IMG/VR virus record: IMGVR_UViG_3300027793_000005
Direction: 5' to 3' (one strand)
From: an uncultured virus (IMG/VR IMGVR_UViG_3300027793_000005)
Taxonomy: Duplodnaviria > Heunggongvirae > Uroviricota > Caudoviricetes
DNA length: 64,000 bases
In this document: positions 16,072-52,565 of the stretch, piece after piece
Position numbering within the stretch: position 1 is the first letter of the stretch
How the letters are laid out: every line of letters begins with the position of its first letter
The notes under the pieces: model-generated
What the model saw: the letters and a program-made list of their open reading frames with translations, nothing else
Database searches by the model: none
Told to the model about the DNA's origin: nothing
Translations under genes and position numbers: made by a program

Positions 16072-16087
16072 CGTATTAGGTAATACG
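16072..16087. promoter_or_regulatory. Palindromic box CGTATT-AGGT-AATACG upstream of promoter P1
   Basis: One of about 16 copies of the motif. Confidence 0.8.
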
Positions 16088-16125
16088 CTGTTGCGAAAAT
16101 ACATCGAAAAAAGTCTAGCGGATGC

Positions 16126-16153
16126 GGAACTAATCCCGCCCCGGCCTGTCCAA
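16126..16153 (+). promoter_or_regulatory. ECF/sigmaE-like promoter P1 (GGAAC-N17-GTCCAA)
   Basis: Matches RpoE-type -35/-10; duplicated at 17770-17797; lies ~45 nt before ATG 16200. Confidence 0.6.
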
Positions 16154-16199
16154 TCTACTGTAACCAACAACAACGCGCTACGGCGCACAGGAGATTACG

Positions 16200-16808
16200 A
16201 TGCTCGACTACGCTATCACCCTCGGCTATCTCAACGAGGTCGCCGCCGGTCAGTCCGGTGCGGCTATCGCCCGCGACGCGCTCCGCAAGGCCATTCCGGG
16301 CTACTTCCCGGACGCGCCGACGGTCGCCGCCATCAAGGCCACCACGGACTCGGAGGCGTGGCAGGACTTCGACGGCAAGGCTCGCCGCATCTTCGCGGTC
16401 GCGTGGACAACCGCGCCCCGCATGGTGAAGTTCGCCGCTGACGGCGAGGCCGAGTCCTACACGCCGACCGGTTCCGACCTCGACCTCTGGGTGGCGGACA
16501 AGGCGACCGCTAAGGCATACGACCCGCGCCAGACCGCCATCCGCAAGGCCATGCAAGCCTATGTCCGGGTGTCCGTGAAGCAGAACATCGCGGACTTCAT
16601 CCCGGAGGCCATCGATGCGGTCGAGGCGGATAAGGCTCCGGCCTTGCCTGACCCGGTTAAGGTTCTGGCGATGGTGGACGCCGCGCTCGTCATCCTGTCC
16701 GAGCATGACAACAAGGCCGCGCTGGCCTTGCTGAACGGGTTGGATGCTCTCGTCACGGTCTGCCGCAAGCCTCTTTCGGAGGGCAAGGCGCTGAAGGCGA
16801 AAGCCTAA
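16200..16808 (+). CDS. First early gene, Ala-rich hypothetical protein, monocistronic
   Basis: AGGAG RBS, strong codon bias, own promoter and terminator, palindromic boxes on both sides. Confidence 0.8.
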   Translation: MLDYAITLGYLNEVAAGQSGAAIARDALRKAIPGYFPDAPTVAAIKATTDSEAWQDFDGKARRIFAVAWTTAPRMVKFAADGEAESYTPTGSDLDLWVADKATAKAYDPRQTAIRKAMQAYVRVSVKQNIADFIPEAIDAVEADKAPALPDPVKVLAMVDAALVILSEHDNKAALALLNGLDALVTVCRKPLSEGKALKAKA

Positions 16809-16816
16809 CGGCCTAG

Positions 16817-16832
16817 CGTATTAGGTAATACG
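16817..16832. promoter_or_regulatory. Palindromic box CGTATT-AGGT-AATACG
   Basis: Identical 18-mer to 16071-16088. Confidence 0.8.
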
Positions 16833-16834
16833 CG

Positions 16835-16865
16835 ACCCCTGCTAGGGCAACCTAGCGGGGGTTTT
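16835..16865 (+). terminator. Rho-independent terminator
   Basis: ACCCCTGCTAGG-GCAA-CCTAGCGGGGGT followed by TTT. Confidence 0.85.
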
Positions 16866-16925
16866 GCCGTTCTCGCCCCCCCTCGCGGCTCGGCTCGGCT
16901 CTCCTGACCCTCCGGGTCAGTCGAG

Positions 16926-17001
16926 GCCAGTTCCTTGTCGGATGCCAGTTCTCTAGGCGATGCCAGTTCTACGAAGCCAGTTCTTAGTGCGAAGCCAGTT
17001 C
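16926..17001 (+). repeat. Five iteron-like GCCAGTTC repeats (spacing 18,18,14,18)
   Basis: Copies at 16926, 16944, 16962, 16976, 16994; a sixth at 17677. Confidence 0.85.
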
Positions 17002-17015
17002 CCGTTGGGCGAGCG

Positions 17016-17110
17016 TCGATCCTTAATCCCCCAAAACGATAACGTGACTTATAGAGAGTTTATCGAAGCCTTGTGAGTCTCAGCATCGATTCTTAATCCC
17101 CCAAAACGAT
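17016..17110 (+). repeat. Direct repeat TCGAT(C/T)CTTAATCCCCCAAAACGAT, two copies
   Basis: 17016-17040 and 17086-17110. Confidence 0.85.
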
Positions 17111-17648
17111 GGATAATGCCCGTTTGTTCCAGAAAATAGTGCCAGTTTGTTCCATTTGTTCCAAGCGAATTCTTTGGTTGGAACAAAATATGTCGTTGAT
17201 TTATATAGCAAAAGTGGCACTTTGTTCCATTTGTTCCAATGTTCCAAAAATAGGCTAGAGGGGAGGAAGGGCAAGGGGCGAGGAGCAGCATCATTCTGGG
17301 CCATCTTTAATGACGTATAAGCACTGGGTCACTTTCCCCGTTATACCCTATTTTCCACTATGCGTGGAACAAGCCCTTTTTTGACCCTCTACTACTACTA
17401 CTACTATAAAATAATATCAATATCTTCTTCTTCTTCTCTACAAAATCAACGACTTGCGAAACCACCCCTCCGCTCGACCACTCCCAATTTTGAAGAATAA
17501 GTTCCGTTACGATTTTGGAACACTTGGAACAAATGGAACAAACGAGCATTATCCTGTCAAAACTTGGAACAACCGTATTATCTAATACCGTCAGAATCTA
17601 TCTAGCCGTTGGAACACTTGGAACAAATGGAACAAACGGGCATTATCC
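17111..17648. repeat. Origin-like region: inverted arrays of TGGAACA repeats around an AT-rich core
   Basis: Perfect 21-bp inverted repeat 17111-17131/17628-17648; 40-bp direct repeat 17515-17554/17609-17648 (1 mismatch); (CTA)n and (CTT)n tracts. Confidence 0.75.
17444..17456 (+). promoter_or_regulatory. IHF consensus site AATCAA-CGAC-TTG
   Basis: Exact WATCAR-N4-TTR with upstream AT tract; near-inverted copy around 17189-17201. Confidence 0.6.
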
Positions 17649-17717
17649 CTTGCCCCCACCTCGATGCTACAACGATGCCAGTTCTATAACGCTGGCGGAT
17701 CTATAACGCTGCCCGAC

Positions 17718-17733
17718 CGTATTACCCAATACG
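17718..17733. promoter_or_regulatory. Palindromic box CGTATT-ACCC-AATACG upstream of promoter P2
   Basis: Similar spacing to promoter as at P1 (36 vs 38 nt). Confidence 0.8.
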
Positions 17734-17769
17734 CTGTTCGGGAATCACGACGATTTTCCACCGATTCAC

Positions 17770-17797
17770 GGAACCTTTCCCGGTCTGGCCTGTCTAA
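17770..17797 (+). promoter_or_regulatory. ECF/sigmaE-like promoter P2 (GGAAC-N17-GTCTAA)
   Basis: Duplicate of P1, including the TCCCG and GGCCTGTC segments. Confidence 0.6.
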
Positions 17798-17800
17798 CTA

Positions 17801-18404
17801 TGTAGGACGGACAGGAACGGATGGCGCAAGCCGAGCGTATTACCTAATACGCTGCCCGACCCGGAAGTCTCCGATGCCACAAGCCGAAAGCCGGTAGTGG
17901 ACGAAGGCGCGGTGGACAGAGCCGCGACGAGCCGATGGCAAGGTTCGGTGGCCTCATATCAAGAGGTCGAGAGCGCGATATCTCGGGGACGTACTCCCTC
18001 AACGCGACAGGGGCGGACTGTGACAAGTCGCCTAGTAGTCAGCGGCCTGTAAAACCTGTGACCTATCAATCCCATGTAGCGCGTATTACCTAATACGTTC
18101 TGGGTGGGGCGGGAGCAGGGGGGCAACTGCGGAACCCCGGTATGTGGATTGTAAAACCGGACGTAGACGCAGGGTACGGCAAGCGCGATGAACGGCTAGA
18201 TGGTCTGCCCCGCAGCCGATACGGGTGGGCAACATACACCCGGCAGCGTTAGGGACATGAGGCTACGTATTACGCAATACGCCAAGCCGTCCCGAGTATC
18301 TGCCTACAACTGCTGTGAAGCCGTCATCCGACGAGTGAGCAGCCTAGCGGTGATGGTGTGGTTAGTTAGATTCTTGAATGGTCTGACTACTGCGCCGTCA
18401 CCGC
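17801..18404 (+). ncRNA. Candidate large structured ncRNA or structured leader (~500-600 nt)
   Basis: No credible ORF. More than 12 consecutive hairpins; 5' TGTAGG-A-CGGA pairs with TCTG-CCTACA at 18299-18308; starts at predicted TSS of P2; long terminal hairpin 18347-18404. Confidence 0.55.
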
Positions 18405-18447
18405 GTGGGTGTTTATTCGCATCAACCAAACCAAGAGGTACTACATC

Positions 18448-18678
18448 ATGCGCAGCACCAAGCAGCCGAACCTGAACTTCGACATCTACATCAAGCACCC
18501 GCGAGGAACCGGGGTCATCCGCATCCCGTCCGAACTCCTCTGTCTCCCGCGCAGTCAGCACTACGCCTTCCTGCGTTCCCGGTTCAGCGACCCCCGCAAG
18601 GTCATGCGGCTCTACACGGTCGCCAAGCATCTCAACATCCTGAGCGGACTCGGCCAGATGCACCGCATCGAGGCGTGA
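18448..18678 (+). CDS. Early hypothetical protein
   Basis: ATG 18448 with AAGAGG RBS. Confidence 0.7.
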   Translation: MRSTKQPNLNFDIYIKHPRGTGVIRIPSELLCLPRSQHYAFLRSRFSDPRKVMRLYTVAKHLNILSGLGQMHRIEA

Positions 18679-18896
18679 GCGGCGTGGGTTCTATGTGGTG
18701 CGTGGCCTGTCAGTTGGAGCAGGTCGCCGCCAAGCGTGTCGAGGCGGGATACATAACCTGCCTACGCTGTGGCGAGGCCGATGCACGCAAGCGCAAGCAC
18801 ACGGTAGTCCCGATGCACAAGGGGAACTACATCGTGGTGACCGACAGGACACTACTAGCCCAGATAACGCGCCCCGGTCGGGGGAGCAACCACTAG
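18675..18896 (+). CDS. DksA/TraR-type C4 zinc-finger protein
   Basis: CVAC-x(7)-KR-x(6)-TCLRC; GTGA overlap start (alternative ATG 18693). Confidence 0.6.
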   Translation: MSGVGSMWCVACQLEQVAAKRVEAGYITCLRCGEADARKRKHTVVPMHKGNYIVVTDRTLLAQITRPGRGSNH

Positions 18897-18921
18897 CGTA
18901 TTAGCCAATACGGAGAGCGAC

Positions 18922-19332
18922 ATGAACGACGATGACAAGAAGCCGAAGATCAGCATGTTCGATGAGAAGGGGGGTGCGCGTCTTGGCGACCTCTTGAAGG
19001 GCAAGTACCGCCCGTCCCTCCGGGAGTTCATCCACCCCGAGACCATCGCGCTGACTTGGGTGGAGGGCGTGACCGTCTCGACGGTGAACCTCAACGACAT
19101 GGCGCGGGATGTGAACGGCGTGTCTTCCTTCCCGTACGAGACCTGCCTGTTCTACGAGGACACGGACAAGCCGAGCGAGGTCATCGGGCGTTACGCCACA
19201 CCCCTCATCGCCTTGAACGACCACATCTACACGGTCAACAGGATTTTGGACGAGGGGCGCAAGCGCCGCGCCGCGCTCAAGATCCAGATGCAGTACCGCC
19301 TCCAGAAGAAGCGCGAAGACGGTAACGAGTGA
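18922..19332 (+). CDS. Early hypothetical protein
   Basis: Palindrome 18897-18912 fused to GGAG RBS; STV...YET..F motif. Confidence 0.75.
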   Translation: MNDDDKKPKISMFDEKGGARLGDLLKGKYRPSLREFIHPETIALTWVEGVTVSTVNLNDMARDVNGVSSFPYETCLFYEDTDKPSEVIGRYATPLIALNDHIYTVNRILDEGRKRRAALKIQMQYRLQKKREDGNE

Positions 19333-19358
19333 GAGTATTAACCAATACGGAGAACGAC

Positions 19359-19607
19359 ATGGACACGAAAATCATACCGAACAGCACTTACACCATCGGG
19401 TACATCAGCGACACCATTGGCGATGCCGACGCGAGTTGGGACGAGGTGACCGTCCTCGCCACGCTCAACAACGACACGGCCAAGATGGACGCATTGGAGT
19501 TCTGGAAATTGGTGAATTACATGATCGGGTTCTATTCGAGCGCACTCAAGCGCGACGATATCCGCGCCTACCCCCGACAGGACACGCCGGACACCGTGGA
19601 GGTGTGA
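19359..19607 (+). CDS. Early hypothetical protein
   Basis: Palindrome 19334-19349 plus GGAG RBS point to ATG 19359. Confidence 0.7.
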   Translation: MDTKIIPNSTYTIGYISDTIGDADASWDEVTVLATLNNDTAKMDALEFWKLVNYMIGFYSSALKRDDIRAYPRQDTPDTVEV

Positions 19608-19608
19608 C

Positions 19609-19980
19609 ATGCCCGTACTGGACACGACCGAAGACACCATCGAGGTGTGGTGTCTCACGGAACGGTATGAGGAGTTGGAGGAAGCCCAACAGTCCGGGAT
19701 GATGCAGCCGGGTGAGGTCGAGGAGATGCTATCGCTGCTGAGCGTACTCGATAACATCAAGAGTAAGAGCGGCGATGTGAAATGGCGGGGCGATTGGTAT
19801 CCCGACCTGCTTGTGCGGGACTCGCACTACAAGAGTTACATACAAGAACTTCTGCATGACTGCGGCGACATGCCGACCCTGCCGACCTACATCGTCGTGG
19901 ACTGGGACGCGACCATAGCGAACTTGCAAGGCGACTGGACGTCCATCGACATCGACGGCGTGACTTATTGGTATCGCTGA
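19609..19980 (+). CDS. Acidic protein, ArdA-like antirestriction candidate
   Basis: Very acidic; C-terminal YI.VDWDA....L..DW...DG..Y resembles the ArdA C-terminal domain. Confidence 0.45.
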   Translation: MPVLDTTEDTIEVWCLTERYEELEEAQQSGMMQPGEVEEMLSLLSVLDNIKSKSGDVKWRGDWYPDLLVRDSHYKSYIQELLHDCGDMPTLPTYIVVDWDATIANLQGDWTSIDIDGVTYWYR

Positions 19981-20012
19981 ATCGTCAGCGTATTGACTAA
20001 TACGGAGGACAT

Positions 20013-20165
20013 ATGGAACGCAGACAGGTTCACCTGACCGAGCAGGAGACGGAGTTGCTGATGGACTTCATCGTGCATCACGTCAATCGCGGATACATGT
20101 GGGGGCTGGTACATGGTGCGCTCGCCGCGCTGACTGGCGCGTATGCCTACATCGTGTTTTTCTAA
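20013..20165 (+). CDS. 50-aa protein with C-terminal hydrophobic helix
   Basis: Not in track; palindrome 19989-20004 plus GGAGG RBS; MERRQVHLTEQETELL...YAYIVFF. Confidence 0.7.
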   Translation: MERRQVHLTEQETELLMDFIVHHVNRGYMWGLVHGALAALTGAYAYIVFF

Positions 20166-20177
20166 GGAGGTCTGAAC

Positions 20178-20588
20178 ATGGCTTACAAGAAGTACGCCCG
20201 TGAGTGCGACGAGTGCGGCAAGGGCATGAACGAGGGCTACTGCATAGACGGTGGCATGGCCTATTACTGCTCCGACGAGTGCTTGCACAAGGACATCACC
20301 CCCGACGAGTGGAAGGAGATGACCGACGACGAGGAGAGCGACTCGTACTGGACGACATGGGACGAAGACCCCGACGAGTACATGGTGGACGAGGCCGACC
20401 CCGCGCCGAACAAGTTGAGTGTGCCGATGGGGAGTGTGCCTGTTTGGGTAAACCGCGATTTCATCGAAGCGGTCAGGCTCGCATTCGCCAGAGAACTGCG
20501 TGACCGAAGTCTCGACCCCGACAAGTACGAGTTCGTCAACTGGACTGTGACCTGCGATGTGCAGATCAAAGAGGAGGACAAGACATGA
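20178..20588 (+). CDS. Acidic zinc-finger protein (CDECG...YCSDEC...YWT.W)
   Basis: AAGGAGG RBS, Cys motif. Confidence 0.75.
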   Translation: MAYKKYARECDECGKGMNEGYCIDGGMAYYCSDECLHKDITPDEWKEMTDDEESDSYWTTWDEDPDEYMVDEADPAPNKLSVPMGSVPVWVNRDFIEAVRLAFARELRDRSLDPDKYEFVNWTVTCDVQIKEEDKT

Positions 20589-20791
20589 GCGAAGAATTGT
20601 TGGATGCTTTGTACGAGGCGGCATATCGGCTGCTCTCTGCGTACCGGATGCTCGATGCAATCTGCAAAAACGATGAAGCAGACCCGCTAGGCGTAAGTGC
20701 CGACCGCATCAAGGCACGGGATAACGCATGGGACGCTTACATAGCGGCGAAAAAAATGTGGCACAAGCATGCGACGGAGGACAAGGTATGA
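20585..20791 (+). CDS. Hypothetical protein
   Basis: ATGA coupling, GGAGG RBS. Confidence 0.7.
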   Translation: MSEELLDALYEAAYRLLSAYRMLDAICKNDEADPLGVSADRIKARDNAWDAYIAAKKMWHKHATEDKV

Positions 20792-20991
20792 ACCCGAAAG
20801 AACCCTTCCACATCACCATCCGGTGGTACATCGCGGATGTGAAGCAAGTGCGCCCCGACCTGACCGATGACCAAGCACAAGCGGTGCTTCAGCGCATACA
20901 CCTCACCCACGATGCCAACGAGGGCGTGAATTGGGATGTCATCGAGTACACCGCACAAGATATGTATCCGAGACTGAGGTACAAGGCGTGA
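20788..20991 (+). CDS. Hypothetical protein (W...DV...RPDLTDDQA..VL......HDA..GVNWDVI)
   Basis: ATG 20788 coupled; recurrent phage motif. Confidence 0.7.
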   Translation: MNPKEPFHITIRWYIADVKQVRPDLTDDQAQAVLQRIHLTHDANEGVNWDVIEYTAQDMYPRLRYKA

Positions 20992-21272
20992 CCGTGAACT
21001 ACATGATCATCAAGCAAGAGGACTTCGACCCCGACAACCTGCCTGACGAGGGCTGTCTGAGTGAGGTCATCCTCGACTGGGACAGATACGGCAGGAATGA
21101 GGACGACGAATGGATAGCCAAGGGGGAGTGCAACTATTTCCTCTGGCGTAATACGGAAGTGCCGGACAAGTTCGTGCTGTGCGTGAATGTCTGGTACCAC
21201 CCGCCCCATGACGAGGATGACGATGACTATCCCTATGTGGTGCAGTATCTGGAAGTGGAGGTGCAATCGTGA
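20988..21272 (+). CDS. Acidic hypothetical protein
   Basis: GTGA coupling. Confidence 0.6.
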   Translation: MTVNYMIIKQEDFDPDNLPDEGCLSEVILDWDRYGRNEDDEWIAKGECNYFLWRNTEVPDKFVLCVNVWYHPPHDEDDDDYPYVVQYLEVEVQS

Positions 21273-21475
21273 ACGAGAAGACACGCGAGAGAGCCGATGT
21301 CGAATTGATATACAGCCTTGACGAGTTGTACGGATGCCCACTGGGGTTCGATGAGATTGTCATCGAGACCGTCCGGCAAAACCTTGAGGACATGGGCAAA
21401 GACCCGGACGACTACGAGTTGGGGCCGGTGCAAGTGCTATGCGTGGTGACACTTAAAGATAAGGGAAAGACATGA
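21269..21475 (+). CDS. Hypothetical protein
   Basis: GGAGG RBS, coupling. Confidence 0.65.
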   Translation: MNEKTRERADVELIYSLDELYGCPLGFDEIVIETVRQNLEDMGKDPDDYELGPVQVLCVVTLKDKGKT

Positions 21476-21681
21476 AGAAGATAGAGGACACGGTCGAGAG
21501 TCTCACGCGAGAACTTGAGATATCTGTGCGCCGACATGCCCAACTGTGGAACCAATACCGGGAGATCGAGTCCAAGATATACACGGAGAACGCATGGCAG
21601 AGACACGTGCGTAACCGACTGAACGTTTTGAATGGTAGACAACCCAACATCGTATTACCTAATACGGAGGATGAGCGATGA
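21472..21681 (+). CDS. Hypothetical coiled-coil protein
   Basis: Coupled ORF; 3' end contains palindrome 21651-21666. Confidence 0.6.
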   Translation: MKKIEDTVESLTRELEISVRRHAQLWNQYREIESKIYTENAWQRHVRNRLNVLNGRQPNIVLPNTEDER

Positions 21682-22610
21682 ACATCGAAGTGAACGAGAC
21701 GCAGACCGCTGACGAGTTGCTGACCAAGCCGAACCACATCGTATCGCTTGCATCGTCATGCGTGCTGGTGTCGATCGAGAGCCATGTGTGGAACGCCACC
21801 GTGCAAGATCGTGGCATCAGCGAGGAGGTCACGAACGCGAAGCAAGCCGACCGGGACGCTGGCAGGTTCATCAAGAACCTTCTCGCCAAGAACCCCGAAC
21901 ACAAGGCGGTGCTGAACTATCGACAGGCCATCTATAATTGGTCGCAGCGATGCACGTATGACTGGGCGGGATCGCAACGCCTACTGCCCGTCATCAACTT
22001 GGCTCGGTTCCACACGGAGTATCAGGAACACGTCAAGCGGTTCCATGAGTTGGTGGATGACTTCTTGGACAAGTACCCGTCCATCGTGTCCAACATGGCC
22101 TTCGTGCAGGGTGCGATGTTCGACCGGGCGCAGTACCCCGACGTGTCCGAGTTGCGCGGTAGGTTCTCCATCGACCTGATCCAGAGCGAGGTTCCGACCG
22201 GGGACTTCCGCTGTGCCATCGCGGTGGACTTGGCTGATGATATGGCGAAGCACTATCAGCGTCAGGCTAAGCGTCTGGTCGAGGACATCCTCAACAAGCA
22301 GACCACGCAGTTGGTCGAGATCATGCAGTCCATCTCGTACTGCTGTGAGACCGAGACCACCATCGACGAGAAGGGTGAGGTCAAAGTCCGGCGTCGGAAG
22401 TTGTACGACTCCACGTTGGAGCGTGCCCGTGAACTGTGCCAGACCTTCAAGGGGTTCAACCTGACGGCAGACCCGCGCCTTGAGGAAGCGCGTGTGAAGT
22501 TGGAGACGCTGCTTGGCGACCTGACCATCGAGCAACTGCGGAACTCCGATGCCAAGCGCATCGTGGTGAAAGAGAGCATCGATGACATCCTGAGCAAGTT
22601 CGGTATCTGA
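21678..22610 (+). CDS. DUF3150-like helical protein
   Basis: AGRF.K.LL, T..W.....RLLP, F...YP, YP...EL..RF motifs; upstream of MoxR/vWA pair. Confidence 0.6.
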   Translation: MNIEVNETQTADELLTKPNHIVSLASSCVLVSIESHVWNATVQDRGISEEVTNAKQADRDAGRFIKNLLAKNPEHKAVLNYRQAIYNWSQRCTYDWAGSQRLLPVINLARFHTEYQEHVKRFHELVDDFLDKYPSIVSNMAFVQGAMFDRAQYPDVSELRGRFSIDLIQSEVPTGDFRCAIAVDLADDMAKHYQRQAKRLVEDILNKQTTQLVEIMQSISYCCETETTIDEKGEVKVRRRKLYDSTLERARELCQTFKGFNLTADPRLEEARVKLETLLGDLTIEQLRNSDAKRIVVKESIDDILSKFGI

Positions 22611-22645
22611 CAGAAGCGTATTAACCAATACTGAGAGGTAGTGAT

Positions 22646-23722: not shown

Positions 23723-23736
23723 GGAGTCATACCAAC

Positions 23737-24933
23737 ATGAACGCAGTACTTAAACAGGCGAGCATGGAGGTGCGTCTGAAGAAGGCGCACATCCGGTTGA
23801 TCAAGCACCCCGAGACCTGCCTGTACGGTGGGGTCATCCTGATGGGCGAGACGAGCGTGGTCGATGACCCGGCGGCTTGCCCGACCGCATACACGGACGG
23901 ATACAACAAGCGATACGGGCGAGCGTTCCTTGAGCGGCTGACCGATGCCGAGGTAGCAGGTCTGGTCTTGCATGAGAACCTGCACGTCATGATGAAACAT
24001 ATCCCGCGACACCGGGATTTGATGAAGGAGAACGGCAGGCTTGCGAACATGGCGATGGACTACGCCGTGAACGACATCATCCAAGATCTGCATCTCAGTC
24101 ATCCGGCGTTGGTCAAGTTGGGGGATGGGTGGCTGTACGACCCGATGTTCAAGGGCTGGTCTGTCCGGCGTATTTACGAATACTTGAAGCAGGAGCAGGA
24201 GGGTGGCGGTGGTGGTGGTGGCGGCGGGCGTGGCGATGCGCTTGACGAACATGATGGCAGCAGCCACGACGAGATGACCGAGGCTCAGCAAGAGCAGGCC
24301 AAGCGCGATGTCGATGATGCCATCCATCAAGGCGGCATCCTCGCTGGCAAGTTCGGTGCCAAGATCCCGCGTCAAGTCAAGGACATGATGGCTCCTCCGG
24401 TGGACTGGCGCGAGGCTCTACGTGAGTTCTGGGGTGCATATGCACGGGGCGCGGACGAGTTGACGTGGCGCAGGTTCAACAAGCACCGGGTGGCCGACGA
24501 TCATTTCTTGCCATCACTCATCAACGAGACTGTCGGTGAGGTGGTACTGCCGATCGATACGTCTGGCTCCATCAGCAACGATGACATCGGACGTGTGGCT
24601 GCTTGTATCCAAGAACTGTGCGACATCGTGACCCCTGAGCGCATCCGTGTGCTGTGGTGGGATACGCACGTGCATGGTGAGCAGGTGTTCGAGGGTGACT
24701 ATACGAACCTGAAGAACCTGCTCAAGCCGATGGGCGGTGGCGGCACTCGCGTGGGCTGTGTCAGCGAGTACATCATCGAGAGAGACATCAAGGCCGACTG
24801 CATGATCGTGTTCACGGACGGCTACGTCGAGGGCAACATCAACTGGAAGACCAACGTGCCGACGCTGTGGTTGGTCAAGGGCAACAGACACTTTACGCCG
24901 CCTTCGGGCAGCGTGATCAACGTGGAGGATTGA
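23737..24933 (+). CDS. Metallopeptidase (DUF2201-like) plus vWA domain protein
   Basis: TAYTDG, HENLH (HExxH), N.A.D..VN; MIDAS DTSGSI, GGGGT, FTDG. Confidence 0.85.
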   Translation: MNAVLKQASMEVRLKKAHIRLIKHPETCLYGGVILMGETSVVDDPAACPTAYTDGYNKRYGRAFLERLTDAEVAGLVLHENLHVMMKHIPRHRDLMKENGRLANMAMDYAVNDIIQDLHLSHPALVKLGDGWLYDPMFKGWSVRRIYEYLKQEQEGGGGGGGGGRGDALDEHDGSSHDEMTEAQQEQAKRDVDDAIHQGGILAGKFGAKIPRQVKDMMAPPVDWREALREFWGAYARGADELTWRRFNKHRVADDHFLPSLINETVGEVVLPIDTSGSISNDDIGRVAACIQELCDIVTPERIRVLWWDTHVHGEQVFEGDYTNLKNLLKPMGGGGTRVGCVSEYIIERDIKADCMIVFTDGYVEGNINWKTNVPTLWLVKGNRHFTPPSGSVINVED

Positions 24934-24936
24934 GTT

Positions 24937-25107
24937 ATGAGCGACAAGAAGCGAGTCATCATCACCATCAGAGGTGGCATCCCCGAGATCATCGAGGCAC
25001 CGGACGGTGTCGATGTCGAGATACGGGACTATGACACCGAGTGGTATCCCAAGGACGAGTTGGAAGAAGACGAAGACGGCGACAAGTATTTTCCGAGGAG
25101 TGGTTGA
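24937..25107 (+). CDS. 56-aa acidic protein (V.I.IRGG......P.GVDVEIRDYD)
   Basis: Not in track; GGAGG RBS. Confidence 0.65.
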   Translation: MSDKKRVIITIRGGIPEIIEAPDGVDVEIRDYDTEWYPKDELEEDEDGDKYFPRSG

Positions 25108-25109
25108 GT

Positions 25110-25283
25110 ATGAAGACCTACGAAGTGACCATCCGTGCGACCGTTATCAAGACGCTGAAGGTCGAGGCCAAGGACGCAGACACTGCGAACATCATAGCGC
25201 GTGAGGAGTTCTCCGTACTGAACACGGGGGACGATGAAGACTACGACGAGGAAACTTTGGATATTCAGGAGGTGAAGCCGTGA
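25110..25283 (+). CDS. DpnD/PcfM-like small protein (MKTYEV.I......VEA.D...A)
   Basis: Motif; ATG 25110 with AGGAG RBS. Confidence 0.55.
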   Translation: MKTYEVTIRATVIKTLKVEAKDADTANIIAREEFSVLNTGDDEDYDEETLDIQEVKP

Positions 25284-25513
25284 GCAACACCAAGTACATC
25301 ACTCGCACCAAGGCCGAGGAGTTGACCCGTGGGTACATCAACTGCATGAACTTCATCTACTGGGAGATCGTGAACAACAAGGGCGATATGGAGTTAGTTC
25401 TCAAGCCCGGAAGGTGGATTGTCATGAAGCACTACCTCGCACGACCTGTCTTTCTCAAGGTCGAGAAGGACATGACCCTGACCGAATACTATGTGAAGGA
25501 GGACGAAACATGA
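25280..25513 (+). CDS. Hypothetical protein
   Basis: Starts in GGAGGTGAAGCCGTGA linker. Confidence 0.65.
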   Translation: MSNTKYITRTKAEELTRGYINCMNFIYWEIVNNKGDMELVLKPGRWIVMKHYLARPVFLKVEKDMTLTEYYVKEDET

Positions 25514-26135: not shown

Positions 26136-26302
26136 TGAACAAGGATTACATACCGGGATACACGGACTACACCATCACGTTCACGATGCATGCTGGTGGT
26201 CTCTCCAAGGAGTTGGTCGAACTTGACCTGCTCGAATATTTGGAAGAGTGCGTCAAGAACAAAGATGTATCAGCGTTCAAATTCATAGAGGATGAGAAGT
26301 GA
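26132..26302 (+). CDS. Hypothetical protein
   Basis: GTGATG start overlapping the upstream stop. Confidence 0.55.
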   Translation: MMNKDYIPGYTDYTITFTMHAGGLSKELVELDLLEYLEECVKNKDVSAFKFIEDEK

Positions 26303-26303
26303 C

Positions 26304-27844: not shown

Positions 27845-27885
27845 GTACAGCGTATTAAATAATACGCTGCGCTACATGAGGGAAC

Positions 27886-38512: not shown

Positions 38513-38900
38513 TACCGACGAACTGGTCGAAGCGTATTTAGTAATACGCTCACGGCGCGAGAATCTGCTACGCGAATACGAACTGGCAGACAGCGCTTTG
38601 AAAGAAGACATGGCGAAGTTGGAAACGCGTATGCTCGAAATGTGCAACGCCGTGAATGCTGATAGTATCAAGACGCAGCACGGCACAGTCATGCGCAAGT
38701 TGAACGAGCGTTTCTTCTGCCAAGATTGGGAAAATTTCTACAAGTTTGTCTTGGGTAACGAAGCCCCGCACCTGTTGGAGCGGCGTATCCACCAAGGCAA
38801 CTTTAAAGAATTCATGAAAGAACACGAAAACGATGGGCTTCCGCCCGGAGTGAACGTGATGCGTGAATACGGTGTTTCAGTACGTAAATCCAGTAAGTGA
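38496..38900 (+). CDS. Conserved replication-module protein
   Basis: SIKT..GT, DW..FY.FV, LLERRI.Q, PPG.N motifs; contains palindrome 38533-38548. Confidence 0.7.
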   Translation: MMNTNNTDELVEAYLVIRSRRENLLREYELADSALKEDMAKLETRMLEMCNAVNADSIKTQHGTVMRKLNERFFCQDWENFYKFVLGNEAPHLLERRIHQGNFKEFMKEHENDGLPPGVNVMREYGVSVRKSSK

Positions 38901-46100: not shown

Positions 46101-49100
46101 AAACTCTTCAGCAAGAGCGGCCTCAAGTGCTGCAATATGCTGCTGATTTTCGTAGTCAAACGGGTTCTTGGCGTTGACGTACACCGCGTAAATAGGGCCT
46201 ACGTCGTAATCGTACTCATCAACCGTAAAGCGGTCAGCAAAATACGGATCAGGTGACAAGAAAATAGCCTTTGCACGCCCACCGGGCCGGAACACCGAAA
46301 ACACTTTCGGGGAGCCGTGATACATGATGATGGGGCGACCCTCTTCGTCCACCACCTTGGACCCACTGAACCAATCCCAGAAGTTCTTCAACCCTTCGAT
46401 GCTCGGGAAAATAGGACGCGGACCCTTGAACCCCATAGCCTCCTTGATCATGGAAGCCGCCATAGTATCGTTAGGCGTGCCTAGTCCATCGAGGAAGTCC
46501 TTGACCGCCTGTGAAGGCAGGAACTCGGGGCGTTTGCCCGTGAGGTAGGCTGCAATCCGCTTCAGTTTGGCAGCGAGAGTTGAGAAGAACTTCTCTACGA
46601 CAGACAGCGGCTTCTCGCTGGTCGTCATCCACTTGGCTACGTTGTCCGCGAACCACTCCGCAAACGACTTGAAGTACTCTTGGTCTTTCTCGCTAAGCAC
46701 CATGTCTTCGGACAGGTCCGACAAATCGGCTTCCGCCGTTGCCCATGCACGTACTTTGCGGATCAACTTGGCGGTGGTCTCACCCTCGTTCTCGGAAAGC
46801 CATGCCAGATAGTCATTGAAGATGGCGTTCCGCGTCTTCTCGTCCGCGTTGCTGAGCGCTTCGTATTCGACGATATGCCCAAGTTCATGCCCGATGTTTT
46901 CGAGCAAAACATTTATTTCCGTGTTTGAATCCACGAACAAGGCGTAGCCCTGCCCGTTAGGAAGGGGCATAACAGCGCCAAACGTATTCGGGCTTGTCGC
47001 GTCCGTCACCAGCCCTTCGACACTGAATCCGTCATACAAGCCGTACTTGTCTGCGGTAGCGGTCAACGCCTCCGGGGTGGCCAACTCGACTTTGTCAAGC
47101 ACGATGATGTTGGTGTTCCCAAGCCCGATCTGACTGACGATGGACTTGATGAACCCGTCAACACGGGGACTAAAGCGCGGGCTGACGACCACCTTGCTTT
47201 TACCAAACGGTCCTTTACGCCCACGCGGAGTCCCCCTCGCGGCGAGACGTTTGGCAACACGATCGGCCACCTCTTTCTTCTGCTCCGTCGTCGGAGCGCT
47301 AGGACGGCGTTGGGCTTGAGGAGCATTTCTGTCGCGCTCAGTTTTTCTCGGCAAGCCCGGAACATCAGGTGCAGGCGAGGCCTCTACTTTTTGCGTAACG
47401 CTCGCTTCAGGTGCGGTGTACTTGACCGTCATCTGCGGGGGCGGGATGAACTTATCGAGCGCACCCACCTCGTCCGGAACCACGCCTACGCGGGCACCCC
47501 CACTGTAATTCGGTACGATGTAATTGTTCCAGTTATCGACGCCGACGTTGATGCAGCCATATGAGACCTTGTTGTCCGTCGCGTCAGCAGAAGCCAGCCG
47601 CTCAAGACGGCGCTCCTTGATGTCCCCTGTATATACCTGATGGATCGCCATCGAACCTCGGTTGCCCTGCGCGTCTTGAAAAAACAGTGCAAGCCCGAAG
47701 TTCTTCTCTGGCCTTAGTACAGCGGTGTAGTCACCAGCGGGAGTGATCTTCTCGTTGTCGAGAGTCTGATCGATCTCCTGCCCGGTCATCTGCTGGCCTA
47801 TCGGGTGCGACAGCACATCCCCCGCAGCCTTGCCGTATAGCGCGGGGAAGAACTTGATCAACTCCCCGTCCGCTTTGAAGAGGAAGATCTGCCCCGTAGG
47901 CTTGTCTGCGATGATGAACGGAATACCCTTGTTGTCCAACATGAACCGCTCATACGTAGCGCGGGCAGCGGGGGACATGGCCTCTGCCGCTTCAGCCGGG
48001 GGGGCGGGTTTGTCGGCCTCAACCGTAGTCACCGTGGACTTCGTAGTCACGAACGTGGGCTTCGCGTTCAAGTTCATGAACGCGGAGTTGTTGAACACCG
48101 CACCCGTCGAGAGCAGTCCAACTATGATCGCACGGACGATGCCACGCAGGCGGGCACGAACAGACGTGATGCCTTGGTTGACACCCTTGATGACTTCTTC
48201 AAGGAAACCTTTCTTGGCAGCGTCGTTGTACGAGTCCTGCCCGAACTCCTTGGCGATAACACCTTTTTGGGTCTCGCTAAGCCGATCGTGGACGAGGCTC
48301 TGCTCGGACTCAGATAGGGTCTGGGTCGGGGCTTCTTGGGCAGGCTCGACAGCGGTGGGTGCTTCCGTCAGTGCAGGCTCGCCGCGTCCTTCTCGTTCAG
48401 CAGCCCGTTCAGCAGCAGGTGCAGTACCCCCCACTCCTCCGACTGAAGGTTCCGCAGCACCGAGTCCTTCGGCGGCATCTCGCTGTACAGACAGATCAGG
48501 GCTTCCTGCAACTGCTCCAGAGACAACTTGCTCAGCACTGGTTGATACGGGTTCACTTGTAGTCTCCGTGGTGGGAGTGGTGGGTGTCGCAGCAGGCGTC
48601 TCCGGGGCTTTGCGAGTGAACACCACGGACCCGTCAGGATTGTCGGTGCGCGTGAACTCCTGCTGGAGAACCCTGCGAATCAGCCAACGCAGCCCCTTAA
48701 TGTCTCTCTTCGGGTTCTTGAAAGTGATGCTCTCGACAGCCCTCGGGGCGAAGATGTCGCTGCGGTACTCGACTCCGCCGATGACGCCAGTCCCCGGTTT
48801 CGGGTTGAGTTCGCCGCTCACGGAGTTGGGGCGGAACCGAACCATCACGCCCTTGTTGTTACCCTGCCCGATCGCCAAGTCGGGGTCATCGGTGACGAAC
48901 CCGCCGATATGTGAGAACTGTTTGTCCGAGATGAGCAGGTCGAGCAAGTTGTCCGCAGAGGTCTCGCGGAACAGCGGCTTGCCCTCCGCGATCACGTTTG
49001 GGATTATGACCGTGGGGCCAAAAGGGATTCTCTGGATCGAGTCAACGCGTGGGAACATCTCCTCTACTTTCGCCCCAGCGGGCGCAGGGACCATCTCCGG

Positions 49101-50945
49101 GGGCTTAGGTTCGGCAACTTTTTCTTCCGCTAGAGCAGTCTCTACCGCAACCTCTTGCTCGGCCTCGACCGTCTCCGTTGCCTTCGGCGCGAGCAATTTG
49201 AATCTGTCACCTGCCTTGCCATAACGCTCAACGATGCCTTCGTCCACGAAGCCACGCATGACAGCAGCGGCCTTGGGCTGGTTCAGCCCGGTAGCCTCAG
49301 AGATCGCCTTGATGGTCGGCCTGACCTTGATGGCTTCAAGCGCCAAAGCACGTACGTCCGGCGTGGGAGCAGGAGCCGGGGCAGGAGCAGCGGGTTCCTC
49401 ACTCAACAACTCCTGCTGAACCGGGCGGTCAGCAAACGGCTTGACGGGGGCCGGGGCGGGAGCCGGAGCGGGAGTAGTTGAAGTTGCAACTGAAGGTGTA
49501 GTTGCAACCTGAATGTTCGGGGCCGGAGCAGGGGGAGCAGGGGGAGCCGGAGCCACCGTGACTTCCCCGTTCATGCGCTGCATGAAGTTCTTGTGAAAGA
49601 CGTCAAGCCGCGTAGTCAGGTTGTCGTAAGTCCGCGACAGATCAGCAGAGAAAGCCTCTACAGACACGTTCCGCGCCGCCGCTTGAGCCGCAAGTTCCTC
49701 CGGGCTGAACAGAAGCGATGCCAGTTGTTCTTGTACCTGCTCCATCTGATCAATCTCTTCATAGACTTGATCATCTGTCAGGTTCATAGGCTCTTTGCGC
49801 AGAGCCTCCGGAGCATCTTCAGCCACAATTCTCGGCGGAGCATTGAGTAAGTCCTGTGCGGACTCGATCGGCTTGGGAGGCGGTGGGGGCGTAGACGCTT
49901 CTTCGGTCTCGCGCTGCTCAAGATCGCCCGGATCCAGCGGGACGGATTCCGGTCTAGCAGGCCCCATAGCGCCAAGCCCACCACCCAAGATCGCACCGGC
50001 AGCGCCTTCAAGAGTGGCCGCGCCCGCCACTCCACGGAACGTGGGGACGTCAAACCCCTCACGCTGCAAGGCGACGTTTTCGGCAAACTGTTCTTGACCT
50101 GCCTGAAGCGCCTCGGGACCGGCTTCCTTAGCCGCGCTCATCGCTGTACGCCGGATCAATCCTTGCTGAGCAGCCTCTTCCGCTGCCTTCCCCGCCGCTG
50201 CACGGCCTAGAATCCTGTTGGCCACAGCCTTTTCAAGCCCCGTCCCGGCTGCGAGGATGCCAAGCCCAGAGCCTGCCAGTATCAGATCGAGGTTCTTGCC
50301 ACCGTACTCTTGCGCCTGCTGAGCGGTGCGTTCAGCCTGTTCTTCCGTAGCGCCAGTCTCAAGCAGCGTCTGCTTGGTGGCGTCATAAATAGAACTCTTG
50401 ATGGTTCCCGCACCAGTCAACGCACCGATAGTCGGCACTGCTACAAGACGCAGCACTCCACCAGCCAGACCGCCGATGATGGTAGGCACCGCCGTGCCCG
50501 CTGCCTGCGAAAGAGTATCAAGCGGAGCAGTAGCAAGCGCTTTAAGGCCTCCAACGACCTGTGCGCCGATACCTTTATCTTCCGCATCTTTCATGATGCG
50601 GGCGACTTCAGCCTGATCTTGCTTGGACTGGGCGCTCAGTAGCCCCTGCAAATAGTCTTCAACGCTACGAATATTCTGAGAGACAGGATTATCCGCACCG
50701 AACGCATCGGTGATAAAGCGGACACCCTGCGCAATACCTGTACCAAACTTGACCGGAACATCGGCTACGCTGCGGAAAACAGACTGTTCTTCAGGGGTAG
50801 GCTCCGGCGCAAACCCGATCTTCCCGGCAAAATCATCGAAAGGGATATCACTGTAGTACGCACGATGCAGCCCCTCCGCAAGTTGTTGATCGGTCAGATC
50901 TTGATACTGCGGATACTGTTTGCGGATTTCAGCGATAGTAGGCAC
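43122..50945 (-). CDS. Giant polyvalent virion ejection protein (wHTH, ART-like, L,D-transpeptidase-like, zincin, ART-PolyVal, PLxRFG-like)
   Basis: 2607 aa; last gene of virion module; motifs AIH...SYGCINV, HELGH, WF.GSKVVD..G.P...YHGS, YLPLYREGDY. Confidence 0.8.
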   Translation of the reverse strand: MPTIAEIRKQYPQYQDLTDQQLAEGLHRAYYSDIPFDDFAGKIGFAPEPTPEEQSVFRSVADVPVKFGTGIAQGVRFITDAFGADNPVSQNIRSVEDYLQGLLSAQSKQDQAEVARIMKDAEDKGIGAQVVGGLKALATAPLDTLSQAAGTAVPTIIGGLAGGVLRLVAVPTIGALTGAGTIKSSIYDATKQTLLETGATEEQAERTAQQAQEYGGKNLDLILAGSGLGILAAGTGLEKAVANRILGRAAAGKAAEEAAQQGLIRRTAMSAAKEAGPEALQAGQEQFAENVALQREGFDVPTFRGVAGAATLEGAAGAILGGGLGAMGPARPESVPLDPGDLEQRETEEASTPPPPPKPIESAQDLLNAPPRIVAEDAPEALRKEPMNLTDDQVYEEIDQMEQVQEQLASLLFSPEELAAQAAARNVSVEAFSADLSRTYDNLTTRLDVFHKNFMQRMNGEVTVAPAPPAPPAPAPNIQVATTPSVATSTTPAPAPAPAPVKPFADRPVQQELLSEEPAAPAPAPAPTPDVRALALEAIKVRPTIKAISEATGLNQPKAAAVMRGFVDEGIVERYGKAGDRFKLLAPKATETVEAEQEVAVETALAEEKVAEPKPPEMVPAPAGAKVEEMFPRVDSIQRIPFGPTVIIPNVIAEGKPLFRETSADNLLDLLISDKQFSHIGGFVTDDPDLAIGQGNNKGVMVRFRPNSVSGELNPKPGTGVIGGVEYRSDIFAPRAVESITFKNPKRDIKGLRWLIRRVLQQEFTRTDNPDGSVVFTRKAPETPAATPTTPTTETTSEPVSTSAEQVVSGAVAGSPDLSVQRDAAEGLGAAEPSVGGVGGTAPAAERAAEREGRGEPALTEAPTAVEPAQEAPTQTLSESEQSLVHDRLSETQKGVIAKEFGQDSYNDAAKKGFLEEVIKGVNQGITSVRARLRGIVRAIIVGLLSTGAVFNNSAFMNLNAKPTFVTTKSTVTTVEADKPAPPAEAAEAMSPAARATYERFMLDNKGIPFIIADKPTGQIFLFKADGELIKFFPALYGKAAGDVLSHPIGQQMTGQEIDQTLDNEKITPAGDYTAVLRPEKNFGLALFFQDAQGNRGSMAIHQVYTGDIKERRLERLASADATDNKVSYGCINVGVDNWNNYIVPNYSGGARVGVVPDEVGALDKFIPPPQMTVKYTAPEASVTQKVEASPAPDVPGLPRKTERDRNAPQAQRRPSAPTTEQKKEVADRVAKRLAARGTPRGRKGPFGKSKVVVSPRFSPRVDGFIKSIVSQIGLGNTNIIVLDKVELATPEALTATADKYGLYDGFSVEGLVTDATSPNTFGAVMPLPNGQGYALFVDSNTEINVLLENIGHELGHIVEYEALSNADEKTRNAIFNDYLAWLSENEGETTAKLIRKVRAWATAEADLSDLSEDMVLSEKDQEYFKSFAEWFADNVAKWMTTSEKPLSVVEKFFSTLAAKLKRIAAYLTGKRPEFLPSQAVKDFLDGLGTPNDTMAASMIKEAMGFKGPRPIFPSIEGLKNFWDWFSGSKVVDEEGRPIIMYHGSPKVFSVFRPGGRAKAIFLSPDPYFADRFTVDEYDYDVGPIYAVYVNAKNPFDYENQQHIAALEAALAEEFDKSGGNVRATGDFLNWDEMVSAIKDGDWRTIENPTVQKAIKKIGHDGFYVLESMFSPQLGDRVEAKNLAVYEPNQVKSAIGNSGKFSPKANDIRQSRRAGRAALNNVGAAINSQPRFNNKTYIAVRAALDSTRITDAMRSALYMFTSLPQHVQMFAKELPTLKGLLNVLNVRASALKDRKEGLDRNIRKWNDVIKKHIKHKDDFYEIAHESTRLQVEFNNQKFASHPLTQRFNRLPTDLQKMYWEMLASYKGMADEYLTLISKNLSPREANRLQREMAKKRLRVYLPLYREGDYWLRYQDANNETVVQSFKSNYERELAWKEAVANGAMRGSEQMFARVEDFFQNNGPGTFFNRVLDDLKSRNAPEAVKRALYEMYLDQIPASSVRQLYRKRDGYKGYESDLMNVYATVASRMANQLTSLEYVPEIDKAFDEVKQEAKVYAGSGASKNRSVPILINNLEKQIEYLRDPGNGTLVNALSSFSYYWYIIGNISTAVINTTQLPMVVYPMLVGRYGANAASAAMTDATKQYFKGGFDNDNIPGGVKKFPADFSFGIGLPPNSPLGRLYKAAVRQSAIRRSTGYDLVEGRKKNYGMGDYVGLMAKTEQILGWVFQNSERFNREVTLIAAFNLEMKKNGGNVDKAISDAIELVTMSHGTVLTETSPRVFQTGFFKVAFTFKNFAQTQIYLLSKLLREAVRGETPEVKKLAAKQLIGISAMSFVFAGLHGMPFYSAATLLADVLSDMFGDDDDPLKSNEVVRQSVGALAHKGVINELFMADLASRTGFNGLLWRDDDKRLEEVGPVLFAAEQIFGPAYAAGMGFFRAAKDLDEGHVDRALEAATPAAIRNGLKAYRFTVDGAKSRSGELIFDDFNKYELFMQTLGFTPVEVARRSESAGALAGRMNNLTKRKTALLDRLYLARINGDREGTREAVEAIRKFNQNEFVRKTRNVISSQDMQESFTRRRNNTRNSIYGINVPERSRRALEADYKIEDDEE

Positions 50946-50951
50946 GGGGTA

Positions 50952-52565
50952 TTACCGAATACCGAGCGGATCAGTCAAAGACGTGGTAGCAGTAACGGGC
51001 GCTCCGCCTGCTCTGGTCAATTGGTCGCGCTCACGTTCAACACCAGCGAGTTCTCTACGGGCATCGTCATATGCTGCTTTTTCTGTTGGACTAAGATCAA
51101 ACCCCCGAAGGCTGTTTATATACTCAGTCAAGGAATCAGCCCTGTTTTTCAACACAGCAAGCCTGTTCTTCACCTCGGTCTCAGGAGTGATCGCGCCCGG
51201 CGTGGGCTTCATGCCTGCTAGGTCGGCACGGGAGGCTGCACCGATTTCGGCAGCACGGATAGTGGCCCCAGCACTTCTACGCGAGTTCTCTACGGTGGCA
51301 GCAATCTGCGCGTAGTCCACCTTCAACTTGTCTTCATGTTGCTGACGCTGAAGCATCTCAGTACGCGCCTGCTGGGCGATCTGCATAGCGCTCTTGAAAT
51401 CGCCTTCCTTCTCAAGTTCTTCTGCCTCGCGCAGTTTAAGCATGGACTCCTTAAGCCCACGACGGTTGGCATCCATCTCTTTCTGGATACCGCGAAGCGC
51501 CTGAGTGCCAGACATAGCACCCTCAGCCAACGCGCCCAAGAAAGTAGCACCCGGACGTGACGCGGCAGCGGCCATCTTGAACCCCGCCTCAGCAAACGCC
51601 ATCATGCGGTCGCGCCCAAACTGTTCAGTCAGTTTGTTGTTCTCGTCAGACAAGAACTGCCGCATCTCCTGCCGCGCAGCCCCAAGCCCTTCACGCTTAC
51701 GAAACGCCTGAATCCGATCGTACTCACGGCTTTCCATGTCCTCGCGGGTCGGCTCGGCCGCAGCCTTTGTTGCAGGAGGAGTAGAAGCCATGCGGGTGCT
51801 GGTAGCAGTCTCGCGGCGAGGAACAAAAGCGCCGTCCCCCTGTTCCACAGGAGAAGCAGAAACTGCGGGGCTTTCCTGTGCTCGCTCAGTGGCAAGCCGA
51901 TCATCTTGTGCCTTTTCAAGCGGATTCTGCGGTCCGCGTTTAAGAGCAGTTGTAGAGAACGGACTAGTGCTTTCAGGCGCAGGACTAAGCGCGGAAGCAG
52001 GAGCCACGCCACGGGATTTCAGTACTTGCAACGACCTATATGCCTGCTTATAAGCGGGTTCAAATTGCTTCAAAACCTGCTGCTTCTGCTCAGAAGAAAG
52101 CGAACCAAAGTTAGGCATCTGCTTGCGCACGAAAGATATGATGTCGGTCGTATCAGTCATGAAGTCCGGCACTTTGGCCCGCAAGTCGTCGTTGAATTCG
52201 TAGGAGACCGTACCACCGCCGTCAAACGCCACGATGCCGCCGCCTGCGAACTGAGCCTGCTCCATAGCCGGAGCGGGCATGCCACCAAGCCCCTGCTGCA
52301 TCGCCATCTGCTGCTGACGCTGCTGAGCCTCAGCCATGTTCAACTGATCACGGATGGTGGGCGGGGTCTGCGGAGCCTGCACGGGCTGCTGCTTCAGACG
52401 CTGGAATTGGTTCATCATGGCGTATAGGTCCGCCATAGGAGCCACGCCCTGCGTAGCCATGCTCTTGACATACGCAATCGCCTGATCCGGCGGCATACCC
52501 TTCGACATCGCCTGCTGGAGCGAAGCCATCATGGCCCGCCCGGTACCGCTGACTGGACCGATCAT
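50952..52565 (-). CDS. Internal virion / ejection protein
   Basis: Q-rich N-terminus, FAGGGIVAF motif, coiled coils, position. Confidence 0.7.
   Translation of the reverse strand: MIGPVSGTGRAMMASLQQAMSKGMPPDQAIAYVKSMATQGVAPMADLYAMMNQFQRLKQQPVQAPQTPPTIRDQLNMAEAQQRQQQMAMQQGLGGMPAPAMEQAQFAGGGIVAFDGGGTVSYEFNDDLRAKVPDFMTDTTDIISFVRKQMPNFGSLSSEQKQQVLKQFEPAYKQAYRSLQVLKSRGVAPASALSPAPESTSPFSTTALKRGPQNPLEKAQDDRLATERAQESPAVSASPVEQGDGAFVPRRETATSTRMASTPPATKAAAEPTREDMESREYDRIQAFRKREGLGAARQEMRQFLSDENNKLTEQFGRDRMMAFAEAGFKMAAAASRPGATFLGALAEGAMSGTQALRGIQKEMDANRRGLKESMLKLREAEELEKEGDFKSAMQIAQQARTEMLQRQQHEDKLKVDYAQIAATVENSRRSAGATIRAAEIGAASRADLAGMKPTPGAITPETEVKNRLAVLKNRADSLTEYINSLRGFDLSPTEKAAYDDARRELAGVERERDQLTRAGGAPVTATTSLTDPLGIR

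Follow-up and report, generated by a model that had tools for sequence, protein, structure and literature searches.

The window analyzed here, a 64,000-nucleotide stretch of an uncultured Caudoviricetes virus (IMG/VR record IMGVR_UViG_3300027793_000005), carries many copies of a 16-bp palindrome, CGTATT-N4-AATACG (the box), among its early genes. Judged from its sequence, the virus resembles a podophage, with a leftward set of terminase, portal, and head genes from 15777 and a rightward set of early and replication genes from 16200 to ~43000. The first early gene encodes a 202-aa protein, gp16200, which probably binds the box. The reading we favor, at somewhat better than even confidence, is that the box is a double-stranded DNA operator bound by a gp16200 dimer, in a multi-operator system that would block early transcription. 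The features concerned are as follows; P1 to P3 are promoters assigned from consensus, and RBS and ORF stand for ribosome-binding site and open reading frame.

16072..16087: box upstream of P1, with a counterpart here in relatives of several box types
16126..16153 (+): P1, putative RpoE-like promoter, GGAAC-N16-GTCCAA
16200..16808 (+): first early gene; its 202-aa product, gp16200, probably binds the box as a dimer, with helix 109–129 as the candidate for recognition
16817..16832: box, 8 nt past the gp16200 stop and ahead of a terminator-like hairpin
16836..16866 (+): GC-rich hairpin and short T run, probable first-gene terminator; found by eye, absent from a separate listing
16920..17690: origin-like region (putative function), with an AT-rich center flanked by inverted TTGGAACA-type repeats
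17574..17589: box with one outer mismatch, within the origin-like region
17718..17733: box upstream of P2
17770..17797 (+): P2, putative RpoE-like promoter, GGAAC-N16-GTCTAA
17836..17851: box ~30 nt past the presumed P2 start
17860..18425 (+): large structured non-coding RNA, ~560 nt, with boxes 18082 and 18266 at variable hairpin tips
18082..18097: box within the RNA gene
18266..18281: box within the RNA gene; the same hairpin has CGTATC or TCCTGAC boxes in other lineages
18897..18912: box ahead of the RBS of ORF 18922
19334..19349: box with one outer mismatch, ahead of the next ORF's RBS
19989..20004: box ahead of the RBS of ORF 20013
21548..21575 (+): P3, putative RpoE-like promoter
21651..21666: box that follows P3 and precedes the RBS of conserved gene 21678; its place is retained in most box types
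22617..22632: box with one outer mismatch, ahead of the RBS of an AAA ATPase gene
24169..24184: match within a coding sequence, with an atypical spacer; doubtful member
27851..27866: box ahead of the RBS of nuclease-like gene 27886
38533..38548: match within a coding sequence; probably outside the system
50948..50963: variant with two mismatches, unconserved; probably outside the system

Box copies, promoters, and conservation in relatives

The original prediction had listed 16 copies of the palindrome. All 16 coordinates are correct, and the five junctions at which the right arm was said to run into a Shine-Dalgarno (SD) sequence read as described. Eleven copies match exactly, four (17574, 19334, 22617, and 24169) have one outer mismatch, and one (50948) has two; among spacers of 0–11, four is the only one present in the window. 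The 11 exact boxes compare with none in 100 dinucleotide shuffles, and the 14-bp core is seen 16 times against an order-5 Markov mean of 0.07 (maximum 1 in 100), which bears out the enrichment. Clustering in the early region is likewise real, with 12 copies inside 16072–22632. The purine–pyrimidine symmetry proposed for the spacer holds in 13 of the 16 copies and fails at 24169, 38533, and 50948, and the set itself shrinks to about 13 credible members, all in 16072–27866. The match at 38533 is probably not a member, since AYLxIR codons account for it and it is retained in a phage of box type CGTATC (L064 and L313, which are one contig; L and G numbers denote the relatives' loci and records used for comparison). 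At 50948, neither of the two CGTATT-type records that span the 5′ part of the giant gene (G009 and G010) has a counterpart, and the match at 24169 is kept only in the closest relatives examined.

The first-gene unit runs box, P1, gene, box, hairpin. Three plus-strand elements of the form GGAAC-N16-GTC(C/T)AA (16126, 17770, and 21548) are conserved in relatives and separate from the boxes; they resemble promoters recognized by a stress sigma factor of the RpoE type. The −10 half of this assignment follows what we take to be the consensus. At the −35, the accessible part of a study of Escherichia coli RpoE gives GGAACTT, matching the window promoters (PMC8103513). If the P1 assignment is right, box 16072 lies outside the rightward transcript. 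Box centers lie 46–61 bp downstream of the −10 at P2 and 69–92 bp downstream at P3. In more distant relatives (L185, L192, and L196) this place is taken by promoters of the sigma70 type, so the promoter class switches too, and in sigma70-type lineages the box ahead of the 21678 homologue likewise falls, by eye, between promoter and RBS. Gene 21678 opens a conserved plus-strand trio (21678–24933) that encodes a 310-aa protein without known family, the AAA ATPase, and a DUF2201 metallopeptidase-vWA protein; most relatives have a box ahead of the first two genes. The origin-like block also holds GCCAGTTC repeats and a 29-bp direct repeat, and is similar in relatives.

Relatives were sampled in two ways. 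A scan for the box plus GGAG gave 43 loci, 34 of them with proteins in common with the window (several from one contig), and loci that span the region carry 9–12 boxes. Sampling through the terminase small subunit (terS) kept 80 of 586 hits. In these the same positions are occupied by CGTATC, GCCATT, GCCACT, CGTGTT, CGTGTC, CCTAAC, and TCCTGAC palindromes, and by further types (GTTACA, TTCCAC, TCCATC, TCTGAC, and others). Read by eye from consensus prints, the labels number 22 among 49 non-redundant loci (55 loci before collapsing at 90%). Relatives thus retain a palindrome at the same places with its sequence switched, and it is in this form that the positional conservation looked for by the original prediction is found. 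The CGTATT box itself is absent from five records that are 85%–100% complete, four of which have a clear palindrome of their own. No palindrome with at least three copies was found in five loci with short flanks (L322, L323, L334, L394, and L419), and L211 has one only with 4-bp arms. Other spacers are rare among relatives (five exact contexts with a spacer of 5 and one with a spacer of 1, versus 132 with a spacer of 4). In some relatives (L012:5790 and L007:1307), the origin-like region has a 5-nt-spacer box not far from a regular one. Fusion to the RBS, by contrast with position, is not a conserved feature: the box overlaps the SD in 16 of 37 RBS-adjacent CGTATT contexts, and other box types mostly lie 1–22 nt away. 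Overlap is mainly a trait of the CGTATT box, whose last G starts GGAG.

The first early gene as candidate binder

Identity of the first gene predicts a common box with an area under the curve (AUC) of 0.981, compared with 0.871 for terS (49 non-redundant loci, 22 labels; 1,176 pairs, which are not independent). Eight other early genes give values of 0.59–0.95, each on other locus sets. Of the 98 pairs in which terS identity is 80% or more, 46 have the same box and 52 have different boxes; first-gene identity is 48% or more in 42 of the former and 41% or less in 49 of the latter. L012 and L146, whose boxes differ, are 93% identical in terS and 29% in the first gene; L146 (GCCATT) and L158 (CGTATC) are 96% and 20% identical, respectively.

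A comparison of residues with bases (24 alignable sequences, eight box types, and 147 gap-free columns) would seem to narrow the contact further. Residue 123 is the sole column that determines box base 2 (R with G, D with C), and base 6 is determined only by residues 128 (Q with T, R or D with C) and 54. All four combinations of R or D at 123 with Q or R at 128 are present, and the CGTGAC box type, first met after the idea of a code had been noted, agrees with it. The pairings of R with G, D with C, and Q with A are those usual between side chains and bases. Within the first gene, the C-terminal helices and the N-terminal domain assort independently (L145, L146, and L139); in L145, a CGTATT-type tail sits on a CGTATC-type head.

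The gp16200 model (predicted local distance difference test score [pLDDT] 92) is mainly alpha-helical. Its N-terminal domain is made of helices and a small hairpin, and is followed by the long helix 109–129, a linker, and two helices at the C terminus. Helix 109–129 has five K/R and no D/E. The homodimer model scores 0.87 (best control 0.00), with contact agreement between runs of at least 96% and pLDDT of at least 89; the mark used for this score is reached by 20 of 30 solved pairs and by 1 of 23 single chains. Residues 109–124 lie outside the listed interface, and the protein is accordingly modeled as a predicted dimer with a free basic helix. A TTCCAC-type first gene (model pLDDT 89) has the same order of elements and has a common Atlas cluster with gp16200 among its top matches, and the first-gene groups are likely one family. 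In the fold search, the best matches of the two models had Z 6.0 (root-mean-square deviation [rmsd] 3.2, 90 aligned; TetR-type chain 2oer) and Z 5.8 (rmsd 2.1, 52 aligned). Neither model had a viral fold match at E 0.001, the N-terminal domain of the second being barely covered, and a missing fold match does not establish a new fold. No helix-turn-helix (HTH) family match was found for gp16200, and weak Cro matches occur in 11 of 46 members (best E 0.005). A profile search of 1.84 billion representatives returned 23 matches, all without annotation, and the second first-gene group has 709 homologues, with no Pfam domain in any of the 120 listed.

On the favored reading, gp16200 should be made first, having its own host-type promoter and terminator, and would then dimerize and bind the boxes. 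Each subunit would probably place helix 109–129 in one half-site, R123 reading G2 and Q128 reading the A paired to T6. Once binding is granted, repression of early transcription would be the outcome to expect with fair confidence. Since boxes follow P2 and P3 at a short distance and recur at one gene start after another, the most likely effect of bound dimers would be to stop transcription of the early operon and the large RNA, either at initiation or during elongation. The same block would act on a co-infecting phage with the same box. Exclusion of kin phages by gp16200 and its box is speculative; if it occurs, pressure to evade it would account for the joint switching of box and protein among close relatives.

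Nature of the target and rival explanations

Several observations weigh against this reading. With no integrase or resolvase (PF00589 and PF00239) in four related records, three of them at least 90% complete, a repressor would have no obvious lysogeny to maintain, and boxes also lie upstream of P1 and P2, where activators sit. A nearest-neighbor test fails to separate the first gene (30/33) from terS (29/33), and the fast-evolving gene 26315 attains an AUC of 0.948. L145 has CGTATC like L155–L161, yet its first gene is only ~23%–26% identical to theirs. As for the code, its positions were chosen post hoc, after inspection of the data; residue 54 splits base 6 equally well, which means that phylogeny may underlie that half of the code, and no column determines bases 1, 3, 4, or 5. 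The two large first-gene groups align only at E 0.074, on helix 109–129, and 29 of 58 first genes join one profile. Family and fold searches of gp16200 give no match indicating DNA binding. The spacer, finally, has a sense-strand bias (A7 in 142/164; A8 in 103 versus T9 in 32).

That bias bears on whether the box acts in DNA or RNA. We collected 165 distinct box contexts, 132 exact and 33 with one mismatch, a few of which are chance matches in phages with other boxes. The commonest mismatches mirror each other (G16T in 14, C1A in 5), and a G·U pair is kept in one of the 33, whereas neighboring RNA helices covary. Together with a first box upstream of P1, this favors duplex DNA and upholds the original preference for a dimeric DNA-binding protein over an RNA hairpin. 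The opposite view, that the box acts also or instead as an RNA hairpin through which gp16200 controls translation at RBSs, with the large RNA as decoy or scaffold, has a known analogue in CsrA and its decoy CsrB, which displays copies of the binding site. It would account for the strand bias, for the many boxes that adjoin an RBS, and for the presence of each lineage's own box at the same RNA hairpin tip in CGTATT, CGTATC, and TCCTGAC phages. We regard it as unlikely all the same: no compensatory change occurs within a lineage, both spacer orientations occur ahead of RBSs, GCCATT phages have the RNA without inner boxes, and other phages have boxes without the RNA. Descent and direct-repeat copying may account for the strand bias. 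A possible alternative, to which we give more weight, keeps the same protein and DNA sites and changes their job, to activation of P1 and P2 from upstream or to the organization and protection of the origin-like region and of the DNA that enters first. It is consistent with the missing integrase, with one box inside the origin-like repeats, and with a box upstream of P1, beyond an A-tract, in most relatives. Against it, the center of that box lies 35–47 bp upstream of the −35 with no single helical phase, the majority of boxes lie downstream of promoters, and the first box of TCCTGAC phages sits between the first-gene promoter and RBS.

The remaining explanations replace the binder or do away with it. 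Boxes might be mainly recombination points for box-RBS-gene or box-RNA cassettes, as in the T4-type PeSL elements, with no binder at all. Gene content between boxes does vary among relatives, two boxes flank the RNA in L145, no copy of it follows the corresponding box in L159, and L013 has a box and its 5′ flank duplicated into the RNA. Palindromic symmetry, near-invariant arms around a free spacer, and covariation with one protein would all be left unexplained, which makes this very unlikely as the main role; cassette recombination is probably a side effect. We put at a similarly low level the proposal that another phage protein is the binder, be it the HTH protein at 39750, the HTH-DUF3310 protein at 28164, the product of gene 26315, or a domain of the giant protein, although 39750 and 28164 have weak HTH matches and 26315 tracks the box. 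The three candidates named in the original prediction were the two HTH proteins and the winged HTH of the giant protein, which is only a weak Pfam match (E 0.06); gp16200, the switching of the box, and the structured RNA went unnoticed there. The recognition helix of 39750 is identical in CGTATT (L058, L060, and L073) and GCCATT (L065) phages, and that of 28164 varies among same-box phages (AUC 0.59), so neither fits. Gene 26315 shows 49% identity across CGTATT and CGTATC phages, more than its same-box median of 38%. Least probable of all is a site for a host regulator, of the kind bound by LexA-, NtcA-, or GntR-like proteins. It is strongly disfavored because the box sequence switches at the same positions among relatives: phages with terS 90%–96% identical and the same promoter type have CGTATT, GCCATT, or CGTATC boxes, and one phage group contains all 22 labels.

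The large RNA and the wider phage context

The RNA at 17860–18425 has a fold z of −4.0 and is conserved in 28 distinct sequences. Of 78 pairs overall, RNAalifold finds compensatory change in 37. The 5′ domain has 25 pairs, of which 17 covary, and 98.2% of its cells are paired, in a structure drawn from the same sequences; 0 of 500 shuffles reach this covariation, and slid controls give at most three pairs. Phages of five box types have the RNA, and other relatives lack it. One variable hairpin holds CGTATT, CGTATC, or TCCTGAC according to lineage, and L283, a TCCTGAC phage, retains a decayed CGTATT relic in its RNA. The RNA may serve as a leader of the early operon or as a partner of gp16200. 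No Rfam 15 match was found in the window stretch at E up to 1, and a scan of relatives gave four sub-threshold matches to miRNA or sRNA models, in four relatives. The accessible part of an IMG/VR screen for structured RNAs lists candidates of at most 151 nt (PMC10690425); five short motifs of the RNA are absent from six of its supplementary files, although pieces of the RNA may be in files 1, 2, and 4. Four freshwater metatranscriptome runs (contigs only) cover the window in a scattered way that could be of DNA origin; in three of them contigs start at 17780–17815 and end at 18206–18226, a weak hint of transcription. Contigs of three of the four runs also end exactly at 15794, just upstream of the terS start, possibly a late transcript start or a genome end.

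No integrase was found among the 94 window ORFs, with ~8 kb of the 72-kb contig lying beyond the window. Judged by DNA polymerase, even the closest cultured phages are distant (30%–36%): Rhizobium phage RHph_TM3_14A, KPP25, and Rollin, the last two with no palindrome above three copies (50 kb each). Against 50,697 phage records, megablast gave a single 45-bp match, and the RNA, terS, and gene 21678 had none, so there appears to be no cultured close relative. In the genome collection gene 21678 had no match, and terS aligned to at least five contigs of 4–55 kb in metagenome-assembled genomes, including Fluviibacter, Rhodocyclaceae, and two Terrimicrobiaceae. Elsewhere in the window, a minus-strand gene (43122–50945) encodes a 2,607-aa virion protein with the polyvalent-protein domains ART-PolyVal and LPD39 and a weak YkuD match (open frames of 1,610–2,142 aa in relatives), and the head operon includes a GroES-like co-chaperonin gene (10621–10998, minus strand).

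Known systems and what the finding would mean

The window system would work like the conserved inverted repeats (CIRs) of phiC31 and the stoperators of Cluster A, and is a member of neither, nor of the Cluster O or PeSL systems. The phiC31 repressor c presumably binds its CIRs. In both phages many palindromic sites lie in intergenic early DNA, some of those of phiC31 at terminator-like hairpins; in the 21.5 kb of phiC31 examined, TACTCACGTGAGTA occurs eight times and c is annotated as "repressor of lytic genes". For two divergent first genes, Phage_Repressor_c is one of the two closest Atlas clusters that carry a name (0.77 and 0.80), which is a lead only, and against one c sequence gp16200 gave an hhalign probability of 0.1%–0.2%. 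Unlike the window phage's kin, phiC31 has an integrase; gp16200 has 202 aa, and in close relatives of the window phage the site switches.

The original comparison with stoperators holds for the multi-site layout and for covariation of site and protein. As the accessible part of the Cluster A study has it, 20–30 stoperators lie mostly off promoters and block elongation, and repressor distance correlates with site distance (PMC6550527), as the box does here with the candidate gp16200. Stoperators, however, are described there as asymmetric, oriented 13-mers spread genome-wide in temperate phages (PMC6550527); the boxes have palindromic arms with a bias in the spacer only, are confined to the early region of phages in which no integrase was found, and are paired with a protein that has no HTH family match. 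The Cluster O report, in the part available, resembles our case in its multi-copy palindromes, phages without integrase or stable lysogens, and predicted dimeric binder, but its 17-bp dyads exceed 30 copies genome-wide with one third in coding sequences (PMC4351075), compared with 13 credible copies in 16072–27866 and a candidate binder from covariation in the window. PeSL elements, as the sections at hand describe them, also recur among small variable early genes and are tied to cassette shuffling; each is a promoter plus terminator stem-loop (PMC2839356), whereas the box is neither and the three RpoE-like promoters are separate from it. The RNA resembles GOLLD, ROOL, and OLE, which in the accessible text are several hundred nt long with many covarying helices (PMC12286853). 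Unlike these, it heads a phage early operon and carries operator palindromes, and it has no Rfam covariance-model match to them, to introns, or to RNase P.

RHph_TM3_14A (MN988472.1; DNA polymerase 36%) has its own palindrome, GTTACC-N6-GGTAAC, with 35 copies at up to one mismatch in 50 kb, two of which flank an early 242-aa gene. Its sites are genome-wide and also in coding sequences, unlike the boxes, and the 242-aa gene has no detectable homology to gp16200. Several copies in this cultured phage have G·T-type mismatches and the right arm often holds GAGG, so this palindrome may act in RNA. We found no literature account of the box, the protein, or the RNA in a search that most subscription papers lay outside.

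Multi-copy palindromes usually have no known binder, those of Cluster O among them, and here covariation names one, together with two of its residues. The large covarying RNA merits structural study in its own right. In a bolder form that we think rather unlikely, the first gene of these integrase-free freshwater phages, a widespread group, would be an identity lock that silences genomes with the same palindrome, through a new family of small dimers with a simple, rewritable residue–base code and more than 20 mutually blind specificities, the large RNA, new to the literature and with the lineage's palindrome in its hairpins, serving as decoy or partner. The finding bears on how at least ten sites change jointly with their reader. 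If the favored reading is true, these phages would contain a new family of DNA-binding proteins, in which more than 20 orthogonal protein–site pairs form a natural library, and would display immunity-like diversification in phages that have no integrase.

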